64,000 bases of DNA from an uncultured Gammaproteobacteria bacterium (GCA_964582615.1 CAZORP010000003.1:2091-66090), one strand, 5' to 3'; shown: positions 4,530-54,273, counted from the stretch's first letter. The notes: a model not told the origin generated them from the letters alone. A program made the numbers and translations.

Positions 4530-5636
4530 ATGGACTTCTCAACGCTTTCGGGGGCATTAGCGTATCAACACATTCGGTCACTCATTGATGCTCGACATAT
4601 CTTTGGAGCATCGCCAACACACCTTCAGCCCTCCTCCCTAGACCTCAGCCTCTCCCAGGAAATTTACCGCATGCGAGGATCGTATCTTCCAAGAACTGGT
4701 GAACGTGTCCGCACCCTTATTAAAGAAGGTTCTCTTTACGAAACCTCATTTAATGAACCCCTCGAACTCAACAGTATCTACTTAGTTCGCCTTAACGAAA
4801 CCCTCGTTCTTCCACCTTCCATTTACGCTTTTACCAATAACAAGTCCTCAACGGGAAGAGTCAACCTCCAAACACGCCTGCTCCTCGATGGCGTAAGCGC
4901 TTTTGACAGTATCCCCGCAGGTTACACCGGCGAGCTTTGGCTTGAAATTATTCCAAAATCTTTTCCTGTAAAACTCTGTCCCGGGGAACGACTCAATCAA
5001 ATTCGATTCTTCGCTTCAGATACACGACTAAGCACCGAAGAGCACCTTCAATTTCATGCCGAAGAAGGATTTCTCTTTGATGCTCAACAAAAAAAGGTCT
5101 TCTCACCTCAACACGCACGAGCATCAGGAATCACCATGTCAATTGATCTTACATCACAAGATATCATTGGCTACGTATGCAGACCAACAAATGGGAAGGT
5201 TCTTGACTATCAACGAAGGGACTACGCTTCACACGACTTTTTTTCTCCCATTTTTCGAACAAAAAAAGAAGAACTTGTTCTTCAGAAAGAAGACTTTTAT
5301 ATTCTCGTTACCAAGGAAGGTATTCGCGTACCTCCTCACTACGCCGTTGAGATGGCGCCGTATGACGTAGGAAAGGGTGAATTTAGAAGTCATTATGCGG
5401 GCTTTTTTGATCCCGGATTTGGCTATCGTGCAGATGGAAGTGTCATGGGAAGTCCGGCAGTTCTTGAAGTCTTCACCCATGATAACGATTTCATTCTCAG
5501 AGATGGCCAGCCGATTTGTACTATGGTGTACGAAAAACTCTCCGCACTACCTGAGGTATGCTACGGAGAGCAGGGTTTGGGAAGTAACTACTTTGCCCAG
5601 CGAGGACCAAAGCTTAGTAAGCATTTTTCCTCCTAA
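4530..5636 (+). CDS. dcd: Long-form 2'-deoxycytidine 5'-triphosphate deaminase (DCD, PF06559-like)
   Basis: A 368-aa protein with the architecture of the approximately 360-aa dCTP deaminase family, not the short dut-like Dcd. It is placed with thyX, dut and tmk. Confidence 0.6.
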   Translation: MDFSTLSGALAYQHIRSLIDARHIFGASPTHLQPSSLDLSLSQEIYRMRGSYLPRTGERVRTLIKEGSLYETSFNEPLELNSIYLVRLNETLVLPPSIYAFTNNKSSTGRVNLQTRLLLDGVSAFDSIPAGYTGELWLEIIPKSFPVKLCPGERLNQIRFFASDTRLSTEEHLQFHAEEGFLFDAQQKKVFSPQHARASGITMSIDLTSQDIIGYVCRPTNGKVLDYQRRDYASHDFFSPIFRTKKEELVLQKEDFYILVTKEGIRVPPHYAVEMAPYDVGKGEFRSHYAGFFDPGFGYRADGSVMGSPAVLEVFTHDNDFILRDGQPICTMVYEKLSALPEVCYGEQGLGSNYFAQRGPKLSKHFSS

Positions 5637-29963: not shown

Positions 29964-31004
29964 CTACGCGTCCGCCTCCCAAGGCAGTGTTGATATGCCG
30001 ACACTTCCCGTTGAAACCATTGTCGCATACACGGGGCGACGAAGATAAAATCGCTCAACGATAGCCTCGGGACGAAAATCAAAACGCTTTGTTGCGATGG
30101 TAGTAAGATCACGACCATCTCCCCCAAGAACCTGCAGAGAAAGTGGCTCAGCAACGCCCGCAGTGTAGACAACCTGCACAAATACCTGATCGCTAAGCCC
30201 CTCACGAACGAATTGCCGCGCAACATATCGCGCCATGTATGTTCCCGATCGCGCAGGCTTGAGAGGATCCTTTCCCGCGAGTGCAACCCCTCCATGAGGG
30301 AGAAGCCCTCCATAGAAATCAGAAAGTACTTTTCTCCCAGAAACACCCGCATTCAAGAAAAATCCTCCCGATGTAAAAGGACCTGAGGGATTGATAAATA
30401 CCTGGACCCCCTCAACGAAAGATCCTAGTAACGGCTCAAGAACGTGCGTGTAGAGCAGTTGACGCACTTGATGCGCTTCAATTTCTTTCGCATGAGAAGC
30501 GATAACCGTGACATGCGTCATGCGATGATCATCAAAAACAATCTGCACCTTTCCGTCAGGCCGAAGCCAAGAAAAGCGATGATCGGTCATACGAAGCACA
30601 TCAATTCGCGCGGCAATGCTTCGCGCATACACCACGGGCATCGGGAGCATTTCTCGCGTCTTATTCGTTGCGTAACCATAGACAATCGCGGTTCCCTGAG
30701 CGCCTCGCGTTTCCGATCGCCCATGTTGCGGCTTGGGCTTTTCAATGTTTACAAAAAATTCGGGAGTATCCTCGTACCCAAGCGTCGCGTACGCCTCACG
30801 AACAACATCTCCAACCGCAAAATCAGCCTGAGACGTCACCACGCCGCCAACCATCACCATACCAGACGTTCCAAGTGCCTGTATGTCCATTGAAGAAAAT
30901 GGGTCACGTCGAAGATACTCGTCGACAATTGATTCAACGAGAAGATCGCAGACTTTATCGGGATGGCCAAGGAATGGAACCTCGACAGCCTTTTTCATGC
31001 CCAT
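29964..31004 (-). CDS. metK: S-adenosylmethionine synthetase
   Basis: GHPDKVCDLLVESIVD and GGVALAGKDPLKPARSGTYMARYVA. Start set at MGM or MKK. Confidence 0.9.
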   Translation of the reverse strand: MGMKKAVEVPFLGHPDKVCDLLVESIVDEYLRRDPFSSMDIQALGTSGMVMVGGVVTSQADFAVGDVVREAYATLGYEDTPEFFVNIEKPKPQHGRSETRGAQGTAIVYGYATNKTREMLPMPVVYARSIAARIDVLRMTDHRFSWLRPDGKVQIVFDDHRMTHVTVIASHAKEIEAHQVRQLLYTHVLEPLLGSFVEGVQVFINPSGPFTSGGFFLNAGVSGRKVLSDFYGGLLPHGGVALAGKDPLKPARSGTYMARYVARQFVREGLSDQVFVQVVYTAGVAEPLSLQVLGGDGRDLTTIATKRFDFRPEAIVERFYLRRPVYATMVSTGSVGISTLPWEADA

Positions 31005-31071
31005 AAAAGAAACTTGGCAGCACGGTAGCAAAAAACGCCCATATACGCACGCCAACCTTATCCACACCTTC

Positions 31072-31086
31072 AAGGTTACGTGTTCG
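31072..31086. promoter_or_regulatory. Candidate LexA operator, direct repeat GTTC-N7-GTTC, in the metK-lexA divergent region
   Basis: GTTCgtattttGTTC sits 44 nt upstream of the lexA ATG and matches the alphaproteobacterial-type SOS box geometry. Confidence 0.4.
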
Positions 31087-31129
31087 TATTTTGTTCGTAT
31101 ACTAACGTTATCAAGCGGATACCAACCCT

Positions 31130-31744
31130 ATGCTTCCCCCTCTTACAAAACAACAACGCCGTGTACTTACCACTATCGAAGCGTTCGTACAAGAACACGG
31201 CTACACACCTTCCTACCGAGAAATCGCCAGCATCCTTGGACTTTCCTCACCTGCCACCGTACATCAACACATTCGCGCACTCTGCGAAAAAGGCGTTATC
31301 AATACTGGCGATCACGGCATTGCTCGCTCTATTGAAGTTGTAGAAACCGAACCGCTTACCCCCGTCGCTATCATGCTTCCTCTTTCGGGACTTATCACCG
31401 CAGGAGAGCCCATAGAAGCTATCGAGGACCGTGATTCAATTGCCGTTCCTTCAGATTTTGTTGTTGACGCAATGAATTCTTACGTTCTCAAGGTTAAGGG
31501 AAGATCCATGATTGATGACGGTATCTTCGATGGAGACTATGTCATCATCGAACGCAATCCTTCCCCAAAAAATGGAGACATTGTCGTGGCCCTACTTGAT
31601 AGTACCTATGCTACATTAAAGCGATTCTATAAAGAGCCAGGCCGCATTCGCCTTCAACCAGCAAATAGCACCATGGAACCTATCTACGTATACGGCGACA
31701 TGAACATTCAAGGCATTGTCCGAGCAGTCCTGCGCAAGTGCTAA
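31130..31744 (+). CDS. lexA: SOS repressor LexA
   Basis: LTKQQRRVLTTIEAFVQEHGYTPSYREIASILGLSSPATVHQHIRAL (winged HTH), then an S24 peptidase domain (VKGRSMIDDGI, GDIVVALLD). Confidence 0.95.
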   Translation: MLPPLTKQQRRVLTTIEAFVQEHGYTPSYREIASILGLSSPATVHQHIRALCEKGVINTGDHGIARSIEVVETEPLTPVAIMLPLSGLITAGEPIEAIEDRDSIAVPSDFVVDAMNSYVLKVKGRSMIDDGIFDGDYVIIERNPSPKNGDIVVALLDSTYATLKRFYKEPGRIRLQPANSTMEPIYVYGDMNIQGIVRAVLRKC

Positions 31745-33009
31745 GCAACGCGCACCTCCTCTTCAATTTCAAGAAGTCGATTATATTTCGCTAAACGCTC
31801 AGAGCGCGAAGGCGCTCCAGCTTTAATGTATTCCGCGCGAACCGCAACCGCAATATCGGAGATCGTTGCATCGGGAGTTTCCCCGGAACGATGCGAGAGC
31901 ACCACGTGATAGCGATGCTTTTGCGCAAGTTCTATAGTTTCAAGCGTTTCGCTTAGCGTACCAATTTGATTTGGCTTGATAAGAACCGCATTAGCCACAC
32001 CTTCGGAAATACCCCTCTGCAAACGGTCAGGATTGGTCACAAAAAGATCATCACCAACAAGTAAGAGATCTTTTCCTAAACGGCGCGTGAACACCTTCCA
32101 TTCGTCCCACGCATCTTCACTGAGCCCGTCTTCAAGTAAAAGAAGTGGGTACGACGACGCCCACTGCTCATACATATGCGTTAGCTCAGAAGCTGAAAGC
32201 GTCTTTCTTTCCGCGGCAAGAAGGTACGTTTCGGTTCTCCCATCAAAAAATTCGCTCGATGCGGCATCAATGCCAAAGCCCACTTGAGATCCCAATCGAT
32301 ATTTTGCTCGCTTTACCGCTTTGCTTAAAAACTGAAGCGCGTCTTCAGTTTTTCCGACTTCCGGAGCGTATCCACCCTCATTTCCCACATCAGTATCAAG
32401 ACCTTCTTCGTGCAAAATATCCCCCAAAGCATGAAAGATTTCACTCCCCGCCTGAAGTTTTCTTGCAAATGACGTGAATCCATGAGGAATAACCATAAAC
32501 TCCTGCATGTCGAGATTAGTATCAGCGTGACGCCCCCCATTGAATACATTCATGAGTGGCGTTGGCATGCGAAATCCCTTATGCGAAAGAGCAAACGCTT
32601 CGCGAAGATGGCGATACAGCGGAAGATGAGAACTCTTTGCCGCCGCATGGGCATTTGCAAGCGAAACTCCAAGAATTGCGTTTGCTCCAAAAATTCTTTT
32701 CTCAGGAGTGCCGTCAAGAATCCTCATCGCGTCATCAAGACCACGCTGATCTGCGGAATCCATCCCCTTAAGCGCAGGCGCAATGCGTCGATGAATATGC
32801 TCTATCGCCTTACGAACACCAAGTCCACGATAGCGACGCTTATCACCGTCGCGCAATTCATGCGCTTCGTGCGTACCCGTTGAGGCTCCCGACGGAACAC
32901 TCGCCGATCCGCGAGCGCCACTTTTTAACGTAACCTGAACATGTACGGTAGGATTTCCGCGAGAATCTAGAATTTCTTGAGCGTGAATATCGGCAATGCG
33001 ATCGACCAT
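31741..33009 (-). CDS. eno: Enolase
   Basis: IHAQEILDSRGNPTVHVQV...SVPSGASTGTHEAHELRDGD. Confidence 0.95.
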   Translation of the reverse strand: MVDRIADIHAQEILDSRGNPTVHVQVTLKSGARGSASVPSGASTGTHEAHELRDGDKRRYRGLGVRKAIEHIHRRIAPALKGMDSADQRGLDDAMRILDGTPEKRIFGANAILGVSLANAHAAAKSSHLPLYRHLREAFALSHKGFRMPTPLMNVFNGGRHADTNLDMQEFMVIPHGFTSFARKLQAGSEIFHALGDILHEEGLDTDVGNEGGYAPEVGKTEDALQFLSKAVKRAKYRLGSQVGFGIDAASSEFFDGRTETYLLAAERKTLSASELTHMYEQWASSYPLLLLEDGLSEDAWDEWKVFTRRLGKDLLLVGDDLFVTNPDRLQRGISEGVANAVLIKPNQIGTLSETLETIELAQKHRYHVVLSHRSGETPDATISDIAVAVRAEYIKAGAPSRSERLAKYNRLLEIEEEVRVA

Positions 33010-51641: not shown

Positions 51642-52955
51642 CTATGGTCGCAAACGCTGAACGTCACGAGGGAAAATCGTCGCTTCTTTTACATTTGCAA
51701 GCCCAAGAAGGTTCTGCGTCAACCGTTGAAGACCCATACCAAAACCACCCTCGGGAGGAATGCCGTACTTGTGCATCATGAGGTAGTCCTCGAACTGTGC
51801 AGGATCTAATTCCTTATCTTTAATTGCCTGCACCTGGTCATCATAGCGATTCACGCGCATGCCGCCTGAAATAATCTCACTGCCAAAACCAATAAGGTCA
51901 AACGTGATAGTATTTTCAGGATTTTTTGGATCACGCAACGCATAAAATGGACGCTTCTTGGTTGGATAATCCGTAACAACAATAAAGCCACACTGATAAT
52001 GCTTTGGACCCCAAACTGTTGAAAGCCAACGCTCCCCCGCCGGAGAAAGATCCGGTTCATGCGTTTCATCAACGCCACCCTCTTCTTTGTACGCAAGAAG
52101 TGCATCTTTCAAAGAAATTCTTGGGAATCGAGTTCCAAGCGGAGGAAGTGTTACCCCAAGCAATGCAAGCTCTCGAGCACAATCGCGCTCAACCGTCGCA
52201 ACCATCTCCCGAATAGATCCCTCGGCATGCGAAACGACTTCATCCATGTCTTCAACAAAACCCATCTCAAATTCTAATTGATTAAACTCCGTGAGGTGGC
52301 GCGATGTCGCAAACTTCTCAGCGCGAAATGAGTACGAAACTCCATACACACCTTCATATACTCCCATGGTGATTTGCTTGTACAGCTGTGCCGACTGCGT
52401 AAGCGTCGCTTCGCGTCCGTAGTAGTCAACCTTAAAAAATTCCGCACCGCCTTCGCTTGCCGCGCCTGCAAGAATAGGAAACATAATTTCCGTGAAGCCC
52501 TGACGCTCCATATATGCACGGTACCCCTTTACAAGCGCCGCTTGCACTTTAAAAATCGCGCGTTGTTTTGGGTGGCGAAGTGTAACAACACGATTATCGA
52601 GGAGCGTTTCAAGCTGAACATCAATATCCGGCTTTGCAATTTCAACAGGAACCGGCTCGGTTACCGGAGAGAGAATTTCAAGCTCAGTACACTGAACTTC
52701 CGCTTCTTTAACCGAAGGATCTTTTGACTGCTTTTCTTTGACTAGCCCTTTGACTTTAATAACCGTCTCCAATTGCAATCCCTTCAATTGCTCAAGATGC
52801 GTCGCTTCCAAAACAACCTGCGCAATTCCCGTTCGATCACGAAGGAGTGCAAAACCAAAATGTTTTTTATCGCGCAAGTTTGAAAGCCAACCCGCAAGAA
52901 TCACTTCTTGACCAAGAAATTCAGGAAGTTGAGCGGCGAGTATTCTATTTTTCAT
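51642..52955 (-). CDS. aspS: Aspartyl-tRNA synthetase, archaeal/eukaryal type (class IIb)
   Basis: An OB-fold anticodon-binding N-terminus, class II motifs, and the C-terminal GGFGMGLQRL...IFPRDVQRLRP characteristic of archaeal-type AspRS. Start set at MKNRIL. Confidence 0.75.
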   Translation of the reverse strand: MKNRILAAQLPEFLGQEVILAGWLSNLRDKKHFGFALLRDRTGIAQVVLEATHLEQLKGLQLETVIKVKGLVKEKQSKDPSVKEAEVQCTELEILSPVTEPVPVEIAKPDIDVQLETLLDNRVVTLRHPKQRAIFKVQAALVKGYRAYMERQGFTEIMFPILAGAASEGGAEFFKVDYYGREATLTQSAQLYKQITMGVYEGVYGVSYSFRAEKFATSRHLTEFNQLEFEMGFVEDMDEVVSHAEGSIREMVATVERDCARELALLGVTLPPLGTRFPRISLKDALLAYKEEGGVDETHEPDLSPAGERWLSTVWGPKHYQCGFIVVTDYPTKKRPFYALRDPKNPENTITFDLIGFGSEIISGGMRVNRYDDQVQAIKDKELDPAQFEDYLMMHKYGIPPEGGFGMGLQRLTQNLLGLANVKEATIFPRDVQRLRP

Positions 52956-52971
52956 AGGTATATAAGAAAAA

Positions 52972-54273
52972 TTATGGTCGGTTTCTGTTAAGCATTCTTG
53001 CAAACGGAATCGTTTCACGAATGTGATGCACGCCGGTAATCCAACGAACCGTACGCTCGAGTCCAATGCCAAACCCACTGTGAGGCACAGATCCAAACTT
53101 TCTTGTATTCAAGTACCATTCGTATTCTTCAAGGGGATAACCTCGGTCAATAATTTCCTGACGCAACTGCTCGTAGTCTTCATTGCGCTGACTGCCTCCA
53201 ATAATCTCCCTTCCCTCTTCCGGCGCAATAAGATCAGCGCACCTTGCGCGAAGAACTCCAGCATCATCCGTGAAGCGCTTCATATAAAACGCTTTTACCG
53301 CCGCAGGATAATCCGTAATAAAGACGGGTAACTTATACTTTTCACCCAAGTAAATCTCCTCCTCTGTACTCATGTCATCAAGTGCATCTACCGCGAGTCC
53401 ATCGGCGGCAAGTTCAGCCTTTACTTCGGCATGCGTCTTGCGAATAAACGGCGTGCTCACAAGATTCTCCAAGATCGTTGTATCACGTCCAAGAATTGCT
53501 AACTCAACACGACAGTCACGCAAAACATCTCCAACAATTCTCTTCACCATGCGCTCCTGCACGTCCATGTTCATGACCTGATCGTAAAACGCCATTTCCG
53601 CATCCATCATCCAAAGTTCGCTCAGGTGATGACGAGTCTTGCTCTTTTCAGCTCGAAATACAGGACCAAAGTCGTATACTTTTCCAAAGCCCATAATTCC
53701 CGCCTCACTGTAAAGCTGGCCGGACTGCGAAAGATACATTGGCGTACCGTAGTAATCTACCGTAAAAAGTTGCGTGGTATCTTCGCAACTCGTTGGCTGA
53801 AGAACGGGCGTATCAAAGCGAATGAATCCTTCTTCATGAAAAAACTGCTCAATCGAAAAGAATACTCGATCACGAATGCGAAGAACCGCCCAAGGCGTCT
53901 GTGAACGAAGATAAAGATCTCGATTATCAAAAAGAAACTCGGGACCGTGTTCTTTTTTTCCAATAGGATATTCTTCGGTATTGATGTGTACGGGAATAAT
54001 CATCGTTCCCTGAATTTCATATCCCCCCTGTGCACGAGGCTCTTCCTTTACATATCCACGAACCTCAACCGAAGACTCAAGGGTTAAACTCTTAAGCTGA
54101 TCCCACATTTCCGGAGCAAGATCATGCGCGCTAAAAACCACTTGAACAAAACCGGAACCATCACGAAGCTGAAGGAAGTAAATTTTTCCACTTGAACGGA
54201 AGTTATATGCCCACCCCTTCAAATGCACCTCTTTTCCAACAGCATCTTTTAACTGTCGTATTGTTGTATACAT
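52972..54273 (-). CDS. asnS: Asparaginyl-tRNA synthetase
   Basis: The C-terminus VPHSGFGIGLERTVRWITGVHHIRETIPFARMLNRNRP closely matches the AsnRS terminus. 433 aa, class IIb. Confidence 0.8.
   Translation of the reverse strand: MYTTIRQLKDAVGKEVHLKGWAYNFRSSGKIYFLQLRDGSGFVQVVFSAHDLAPEMWDQLKSLTLESSVEVRGYVKEEPRAQGGYEIQGTMIIPVHINTEEYPIGKKEHGPEFLFDNRDLYLRSQTPWAVLRIRDRVFFSIEQFFHEEGFIRFDTPVLQPTSCEDTTQLFTVDYYGTPMYLSQSGQLYSEAGIMGFGKVYDFGPVFRAEKSKTRHHLSELWMMDAEMAFYDQVMNMDVQERMVKRIVGDVLRDCRVELAILGRDTTILENLVSTPFIRKTHAEVKAELAADGLAVDALDDMSTEEEIYLGEKYKLPVFITDYPAAVKAFYMKRFTDDAGVLRARCADLIAPEEGREIIGGSQRNEDYEQLRQEIIDRGYPLEEYEWYLNTRKFGSVPHSGFGIGLERTVRWITGVHHIRETIPFARMLNRNRP

Follow-up and report, generated by a model that had tools for sequence, protein, structure and literature searches.

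Within the window, as the whole stretch of 64,000 nucleotides under analysis is called here, a lexA gene is flanked by a divergent gene for a methionine adenosyltransferase (metK-like) and by a convergent gene for enolase (eno). The intergenic region between metK and lexA (31005–31129, 125 nt) holds a short tandem repeat, two putative promoter hexamers and a perfect DnaA box (Table 1). The preliminary description had called the lexA gene unambiguous, and the TIGR00498 score of its product, above the cut-off of 110.95, bears this out; the alignment of the protein with solved structures of LexA (3K2Z, E. coli LexA) also extends over its full length. The score of the metK-like gene lies under the equivalog cut-off of its family (309.4), and the three Pfam domains of S-AdoMet synthetases are all present in its orthologues.

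Table 1. Features of the metK–lexA–eno region; positions are counted from the first nucleotide of the window.
Feature	Position	Strand	Remarks
Methionine adenosyltransferase (metK-like)	29964–31004	−	divergent from lexA; TIGR01034, 250.6 bits
DnaA box, perfect 9-mer TTATCCACA	31058–31066	+	precedes the −35-like hexamer by 9 nt
−35-like hexamer TTACGT	31076–31081	+	weak; inferred from the orthologue alignment
LexA operator candidate, TGTTCG-N5-TGTTCG	31081–31098	+	top matrix match; GTTC blocks invariant in the alignment
−10-like hexamer TATACT	31098–31103	+	putative; 5/6 match to TATAAT; overlapping the second repeat at its 3′ end
lexA	31130–31744	+	204 aa; winged-helix DNA-binding domain and S24 self-cleaving domain; TIGR00498, 177.8 bits
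Enolase	31741–33009	−	convergent with lexA; TIGR01060, 562 bits; overlap with lexA in the stop codon region

The Ala-Gly cleavage site (ITAGEP), the serine (GRSM) and the lysine (LKRF) of the self-cleavage reaction are all present in the LexA of the window, where they align with A84-G85, S119 and K156 of the E. coli protein, and the self-cleavage module (Ala-Gly bond plus Ser/Lys dyad) is intact. The best relatives of this LexA that bear a name, with identities of 74–87%, come from Patescibacteria or Candidatus Uhrbacteria, and the same is true of the closest named relatives of SecY, which is encoded at the opposite end of the window. The taxonomy of the host rests on these named neighbours of LexA and SecY, according to which it is a Patescibacterium close to Uhrbacteria and not an alphaproteobacterium; an origin outside the Alphaproteobacteria, raised as a condition in the preliminary description, is thereby supported. 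The titles "uncultured Gammaproteobacteria" or "Pseudomonadales" are borne by several MAG records (L002, L003, L004, L008, and others) that hold lexA loci of the Uhrbacteria type, with up to 86% identity and shared synteny; judging from gene content and neighbours, these records appear to have been mislabelled in bulk as to their taxonomy.

Real alphaproteobacterial lexA genes, taken from a plasmid collection, were used for comparison with the protein of the window, which is 38–40% identical to the LexAs of Cereibacter and Sphingomonas, 42% to that of Bacillus, and 34% to that of E. coli. Its recognition helix, SSPATVHQHIRAL (SSPATVHQHI), differs at most positions from the alphaproteobacterial SKSG(I/V)HRLI(T/S)AL, so that the comparison of helices proposed in the preliminary description does not place this LexA in the alphaproteobacterial type. 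By its residues, the helix resembles those of Bacillus (SSSTVHGHLARL, SSSTVHGHL) and Acidobacteria (SLATVHKHI).

The sequence between metK and lexA had been described as a GTTC-N7-GTTC motif embedded in a 9-mer direct repeat, and this reading holds: the 9-mer TGTTCGTAT occurs twice, at 31081–31089 and 31092–31100, with a period of 11, and the core GTTCgtattttGTTC occupies 31082–31096 of the plus strand. Its distance to the lexA ATG, originally given as 44 nt, has to be amended, the motif starting 48 nt and ending 34 nt upstream of the start codon. The sequence by itself is weak evidence for an operator, because the bare pattern and the 9-mer repeats are both found at chance level, with three GTTC-N7-GTTC matches in the window versus 2.95 expected (the other two being intragenic), and about three short-range exact 9-mer repeats per shuffled window. 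It is the comparison with orthologues that lends the operator its significance. Only the (T/C)GTTC(G/T) cores are conserved across the orthologues, full identity of the two 9-mers being confined to the window and L001, the relative closest to it, with one mismatch in the first copy of L002; this full identity partly reflects the overlap of the second copy with the −10-like TATACT.

The comparison set comprised 80 loci encoding LexA relatives, with one genome per species and 475,298 bp of sequence, and an 18-nt matrix was built from the sites upstream of lexA in 22 other genomes (loci L003–L026), leaving out the window, L001, and L002. Using this independent matrix, the candidate operator ranks first among 127,966 positions of the window, with a score of 21.7 bits, compared to a maximum of 17.6 bits in 20 shuffles. 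Of the 59 matches that score 14 bits or more in the 80 orthologous loci, 46 are located no farther than 160 nt upstream of lexA, a zone that represents less than 3% of the sequence of these loci. The scores of L003–L026 are circular by construction, and the 46 matches also include the non-training loci L001, L002, L029, L032, L038, L044, L050, L062, and L072. Furthermore, an alignment of 13 promoters with a mean column identity of 46% (alignment A1) retains as invariant blocks only the two GTTC tetramers, together with spacer T's, and the DnaA box.

Nearly all close relatives have a tandem repeat with the consensus CGTTCGGTTTTTGTTCGG ahead of lexA, and footprinting traces the form (G/A)TTCG-N2-TTYT-(G/A)TTCG over the lexA promoters of Uhr-, Berkel-, WWE3-, Shapiro-, Pace- and other patescibacterial lineages. 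A metagenome scan with the exact consensus GTTCGGTTTYTGTTCGG, a 17-mer, yielded at least 132 sites, most of them due to chance or repetitive DNA, including many copies of repetitive elements of non-bacterial appearance; the informative matches are those in promoter-like contexts. Among the matches listed, at least 20 consensus sites immediately precede lexA, and they share one orientation.

The same tandem architecture can be recognized in lexA promoters of other phyla, namely in L046, L053, L055, L064, and L073 (Acidobacteria), L065 (Nitrospinota), and L043 (Gemmatimonadota), as in the example TTGACATTCGCCTTTTATTCGC. The LexAs encoded behind these promoters are 46–48% identical to that of the window, and the acidobacterial promoters bear the sequence ATTCG-N6-ATTCG. 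Recognition of a tandem repeat by LexA may therefore be shared beyond Alphaproteobacteria and Patescibacteria.

The promoter hexamers of the window were deduced from the orthologues, because a promoter scanner called none in the lexA promoter at its thresholds. The orthologues exhibit TTGCGT, TTGTGT or TTGACA at the −35-like position and TATAAT or TATACT at the −10 position, and their repeat is placed between the two (TTGCGT or TTGACA on one side, TATAAT or TATACT on the other). Searches of the metK/lexA intergenic region with Rfam and by RNA folding were negative, so that the presence of a riboswitch or a structured leader was rejected.

In many relatives (L004–L008, L010, L012–L015, L017, and L024), a second, inverted copy of the operator follows approximately 8–10 nt past the −10 element, as in AGAACAGAAAGCGAACA, so that four half-sites, two forward and two reverse, are arranged around the −10. 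No second inverted copy is found in the window, where all the matrix scores for it are negative. The second-best matrix match of the window lies elsewhere, at 5255–5272 on the minus strand (TCTTCTTTTTTTGTTCGA), and its 19.3 bits exceed every shuffle; it was rejected as an operator and is probably due to chance, being located within the coding region of a dCTP deaminase, rich in T, with a poor first half-site and no gene start downstream. The dCTP deaminase gene is part of a dcd-thyX-tmk cluster of nucleotide metabolism.

Two further observations concern other parts of the window. The ORF at 40831–44301 (minus strand, 1156 aa), for which no Pfam hit was obtained, contains a perfect 9-nt tandem repeat, CCTCTTTAG, in three copies (43758–43785). 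On the same strand, the ORFs 51642–53096 and 52972–54273 are adjacent and slightly overlapping, and both match aminoacyl-tRNA synthetases of class II (Asp/Lys/Asn type) and include an OB anticodon-binding domain.

Regarding the genes that the operator could control, the divergent arrangement of metK and lexA is kept in many loci of the Uhrbacteria clade, and the synteny of metK, lexA, and eno is conserved across it. Downstream of lexA and on its strand, 16 of the 26 closest genome loci, as well as further contigs, carry a basic ORF of approximately 53 aa, a small ORF, and a gene for a Y-family polymerase, after which comes eno in convergent orientation (L004–L015, L019, L020, L024, L025, L206, and L209). 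The conserved small ORF, of 81 aa, belongs to no Pfam family, and its named members all come from Uhrbacteria or Patescibacteria. No second operator was detected ahead of the small ORF and the polymerase in these relatives and, therefore, the operator upstream of lexA probably controls the whole lexA-polymerase operon, which fits an SOS operon. The window and its three nearest relatives, L001, L002, and L003, are devoid of this cassette, and in the window the stop codon of lexA abuts eno.

The operator is also found away from lexA. In L086, of uncertain taxonomy, and in L104, it is located inside a TTGACA...TAnnnT promoter that precedes the conserved small ORF, here of 73–88 aa, and a Y-family polymerase (IMS family, PF00817; E = 9e-31 for L086), and no lexA was called among the adjacent ORFs in a blastp screen; these are the two detached polymerase operons with the operator among the matches listed, so that the independent cases of the motif at a translesion polymerase are few. 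The preliminary description had proposed to look for the motif ahead of recA, uvrA, dinB, and imuAB-dnaE2, and the Pfam annotation of the approximately 50 ORFs of the window contains none of these genes. No recA was found in the fetched loci by tblastn with an E. coli RecA query. A separate observation concerns L176, where an exact match to the operator consensus (at 846, reverse strand) is flanked by TTGAT and TATATAT and immediately precedes a gene similar to ORF6N/Rha-type antirepressors; a mobile-element gene may be under LexA control in this case.

As to the type of operator, LexA motifs are known to be highly variable. Direct-repeat motifs have been described for Alphaproteobacteria (PMC4951493, PMC8565304). 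The equivalence of geometry with the alphaproteobacterial box, claimed in the preliminary description, was confirmed with fetched lexA promoters, that of Sphingomonas reading GTTC-N7-GTTC-N7-GTTC and that of Cereibacter bearing the same arrangement as GAAC repeats. Core and spacing are thus identical to those of the window, and in both cases they are found in the lexA promoter. However, the fetched promoters hold three repeats compared to two in the window, the recognition helix and the overall sequence of the LexA are different, and the host is not an alphaproteobacterium. The operator is consequently not ascribed to the alphaproteobacterial family in its strict sense, because the features of protein and host that define this family are absent.

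The statement that the operator is not palindromic also stands, as no described palindromic class of LexA box is represented in the intergenic region. Between 31006 and 31129, and allowing at most one mismatch, no Cheo box (GAAC-N4-GTTC), box of the E. coli type (CTGT-N8-ACAG), or box of the Verrucomicrobia, Bdellovibrio, Geobacter or Leptospira types was found; the cyanobacterial LexA motif has no match in the same region, and the only extra hit overlaps the −10 and fits, with one mismatch, the Xanthomonadales pattern, which is not palindromic. The half-site GTTCG is nevertheless that of the Cheo box of Firmicutes and Actinobacteria (CGAAC-N4-GTTCG), and the helix SSPATVHQHI is similar to SSSTVHGHL of Bacillus, although the half-sites of the window are in tandem instead of inverted. 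The simplest reading of half-site and helix together is that a half-site of the Cheo type has been put to use in tandem, and that the operator is not the site of an alphaproteobacterial LexA.

The preliminary description had considered that a direct-repeat operator would be an unexpected type in an organism outside the Alphaproteobacteria, an expectation that is not supported for this group. In the passage of PMC7739468 that deals with the matter, Sanchez-Osuna, Barbe and Erill 2017 (Environ Microbiol 19:3465), a study on Patescibacteria, is cited for direct-repeat recognition by LexA that evolved independently, and Mazon et al. 2006 is also included there among the sources for such an independent evolution. 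To judge from this citing passage, the direct-repeat operator is a kind already known in Patescibacteria, and not an unexpected one. The likeness between the operator of the window and the patescibacterial motif of 2017 refers to the superphylum, the regulator, and the use of a direct repeat, and it is drawn through the citation in PMC7739468. Another LexA from outside the Proteobacteria that binds a direct repeat is that of Balneolaeota, the regulon of which is centred on translesion polymerases, although its motif has a different sequence, TTACACATATTTTWTACATA (PMC7739468).

Considering the comparative data as a whole, the repeat very probably serves a patescibacterial lexA gene, related to those of Uhrbacteria, as its autoregulatory SOS operator. 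The motif, where it lies, how it is conserved, its almost exclusive link with lexA promoters, its occurrence ahead of detached Y-family polymerase operons, and the intact cleavage module of LexA are observations, and the promoter hexamers, the binding of LexA, and the direction of the regulation are what we infer for the following model. A LexA dimer would bind to the two tandem (T/C)GTTCG half-sites which, being 11 bp apart, would be exposed on the same face of the helix. These half-sites would fill the spacer between the weak −35 (TTACGT) and the −10 (TATACT) and, by occupying it, the bound LexA would exclude the RNA polymerase and repress its own gene. Upon DNA damage, the RecA-stimulated self-cleavage at the Ala-Gly bond would release this repression, and the adjacent conserved DnaA box could provide a second input, from DnaA, at the lexA promoter.

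Several other explanations of the repeat have to be weighed against an autoregulatory operator of a patescibacterial LexA. One of them is that the gene encodes a LexA of the alphaproteobacterial type gained by lateral transfer, and that the box is simply an alphaproteobacterial SOS box; a lateral acquisition of an alphaproteobacterial lexA has been proposed for Acidobacterium capsulatum on the basis of its LexA box, according to the title of Mazon et al. 2006 as it is cited in PMC7739468. The geometry shared with the real alphaproteobacterial promoters is compatible with such a transfer, as are the ATTCG-N6-ATTCG sites of acidobacterial promoters and a rough neighbour-joining tree, drawn without support values, in which the LexAs of Alphaproteobacteria, Acidobacteria, and Gemmatimonadota are placed beside patescibacterial clades. 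However, the LexA of the window is no closer to the Cereibacter and Sphingomonas proteins than to that of Bacillus and has a different recognition helix, and Patescibacteria as the nearest neighbours of LexA and SecY, together with the clade-wide synteny of metK, lexA, and eno, point to vertical inheritance within the group, so that a lateral origin is considered very improbable.

Equally little weight is given to the recognition of the repeat by a regulator other than LexA. Direct repeats with a period of 11 are typical of winged-helix response regulators of the OmpR/PhoB type, and the period observed here would suit this family. Nevertheless, the motif tracks lexA promoters over many patescibacterial lineages, and in a looser form in other phyla, regardless of the gene that lies upstream, and it also precedes operons of Y-family polymerases, a pattern that is predicted by self-repression and SOS control and hardly by an unrelated regulator. 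The probability of a chance duplication, or of a plain promoter sequence with no operator function, is close to negligible. The chance-level frequency of the bare pattern and the short 9-mer repeats expected in shuffled sequence, as well as the overlap of the second copy with the −10, would agree with it, but this explanation is contradicted by the comparative sequence data, namely by GTTC cores that are invariant in diverged orthologues, and by an independent matrix that places the site first and has its matches strongly concentrated at lexA promoters. An autoregulatory LexA operator thus accounts best for the pattern.

The DnaA box beside this operator, TTATCCACA, is the sole perfect DnaA box in the 64 kb of the window. 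A replication origin at this position was considered and discarded, since there is a single box and no cluster, and the GC skew is monotonic across the 64 kb. In most loci of the Uhrbacteria clade, a DnaA box with at most one mismatch is kept, usually starting 18–22 nt before the operator. Within 300 nt upstream of lexA, 22 of the 25 loci of this clade exhibit such a box (background windows, 8.6%), and in 12 of the 25 the box is perfect (background windows, 0.2%). In the orthologous loci, perfect boxes reach a density of 2.25 per kb within 100 nt of the operator, compared to 0.014 per kb elsewhere. The association extends to the metagenome where, among the matches listed, a DnaA box is found within 100 nt of 20 of the 23 lexA operators (16 of them perfect), versus 2 of the 109 other matches to the 17-mer. 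The favoured positions in the metagenome are −21 to −23, in either orientation, and +42 to +45, inverted. DnaA boxes near lexA operators were noted in L003–L025 and L093–L200, which cover Uhrbacteria and other patescibacterial lineages. This variability in orientation and position suggests that the box is a protein-binding site rather than a core element of the promoter.

On the basis of this distribution, it has been considered that Uhrbacteria and several other patescibacterial lineages could have a built-in DnaA box in their lexA promoter, constrained in position to approximately 20 nt upstream of the operator, or inverted approximately 43 nt downstream of it, through which DnaA would directly tune lexA, a proposal that we regard as tentative, its chances being a little short of even. 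Its competitor, which is rather unlikely, states that the box takes no part in the regulation of lexA, and that it serves the divergent metK promoter, the passive titration of DnaA, or a protein other than DnaA. The adjacent and divergent position of metK in the window and in many relatives would be consistent with such a role, as would the presence of a single box and no cluster. However, where a gene separates metK from lexA (L209, L005, L014–L016, and L024), the box is still 20–21 nt from the operator, next to the −35 of lexA. Moreover, in lineages with no metK match on the recovered contigs, which are often short, it occurs between −21 and −23 (either orientation) or between +42 and +45 (inverted), and the promoters of the detached polymerase operons in L086 and L104 lack it. 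By this distribution the DnaA box tracks lexA, and not metK.

In E. coli, the genes uvrB, recN, and dinJ are co-repressed by DnaA and LexA (PMC6015884), so that a DnaA box beside a LexA box in an SOS promoter is a feature common to both cases. Unlike in those E. coli promoters, the box is located here at lexA itself, the gene of the master repressor, and its distance to the operator is fixed and conserved, as is the box, throughout the clade. A literature search for a DnaA box at a lexA promoter found no report, the 2017 study on Patescibacteria lying outside this search, and this box may be the only new element of the locus.

The operator itself mostly confirms a proposal of comparative genomics, namely that patescibacterial LexA recognizes half-sites in tandem rather than inverted. 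Since it pairs a Cheo-type GTTCG and a Bacillus-like helix with a geometry of the alphaproteobacterial type, this case bears on how LexA motifs change. If the proposal of a direct action of DnaA were true, DnaA would also tune the translesion polymerase co-transcribed with lexA in most relatives, and the set-point of the SOS response would be coupled to the status of replication initiation in these reduced genomes. In other words, if DnaA acts at the lexA promoter, these uncultured, genome-reduced bacteria would wire the control of replication into the damage response by means of the repressor gene.
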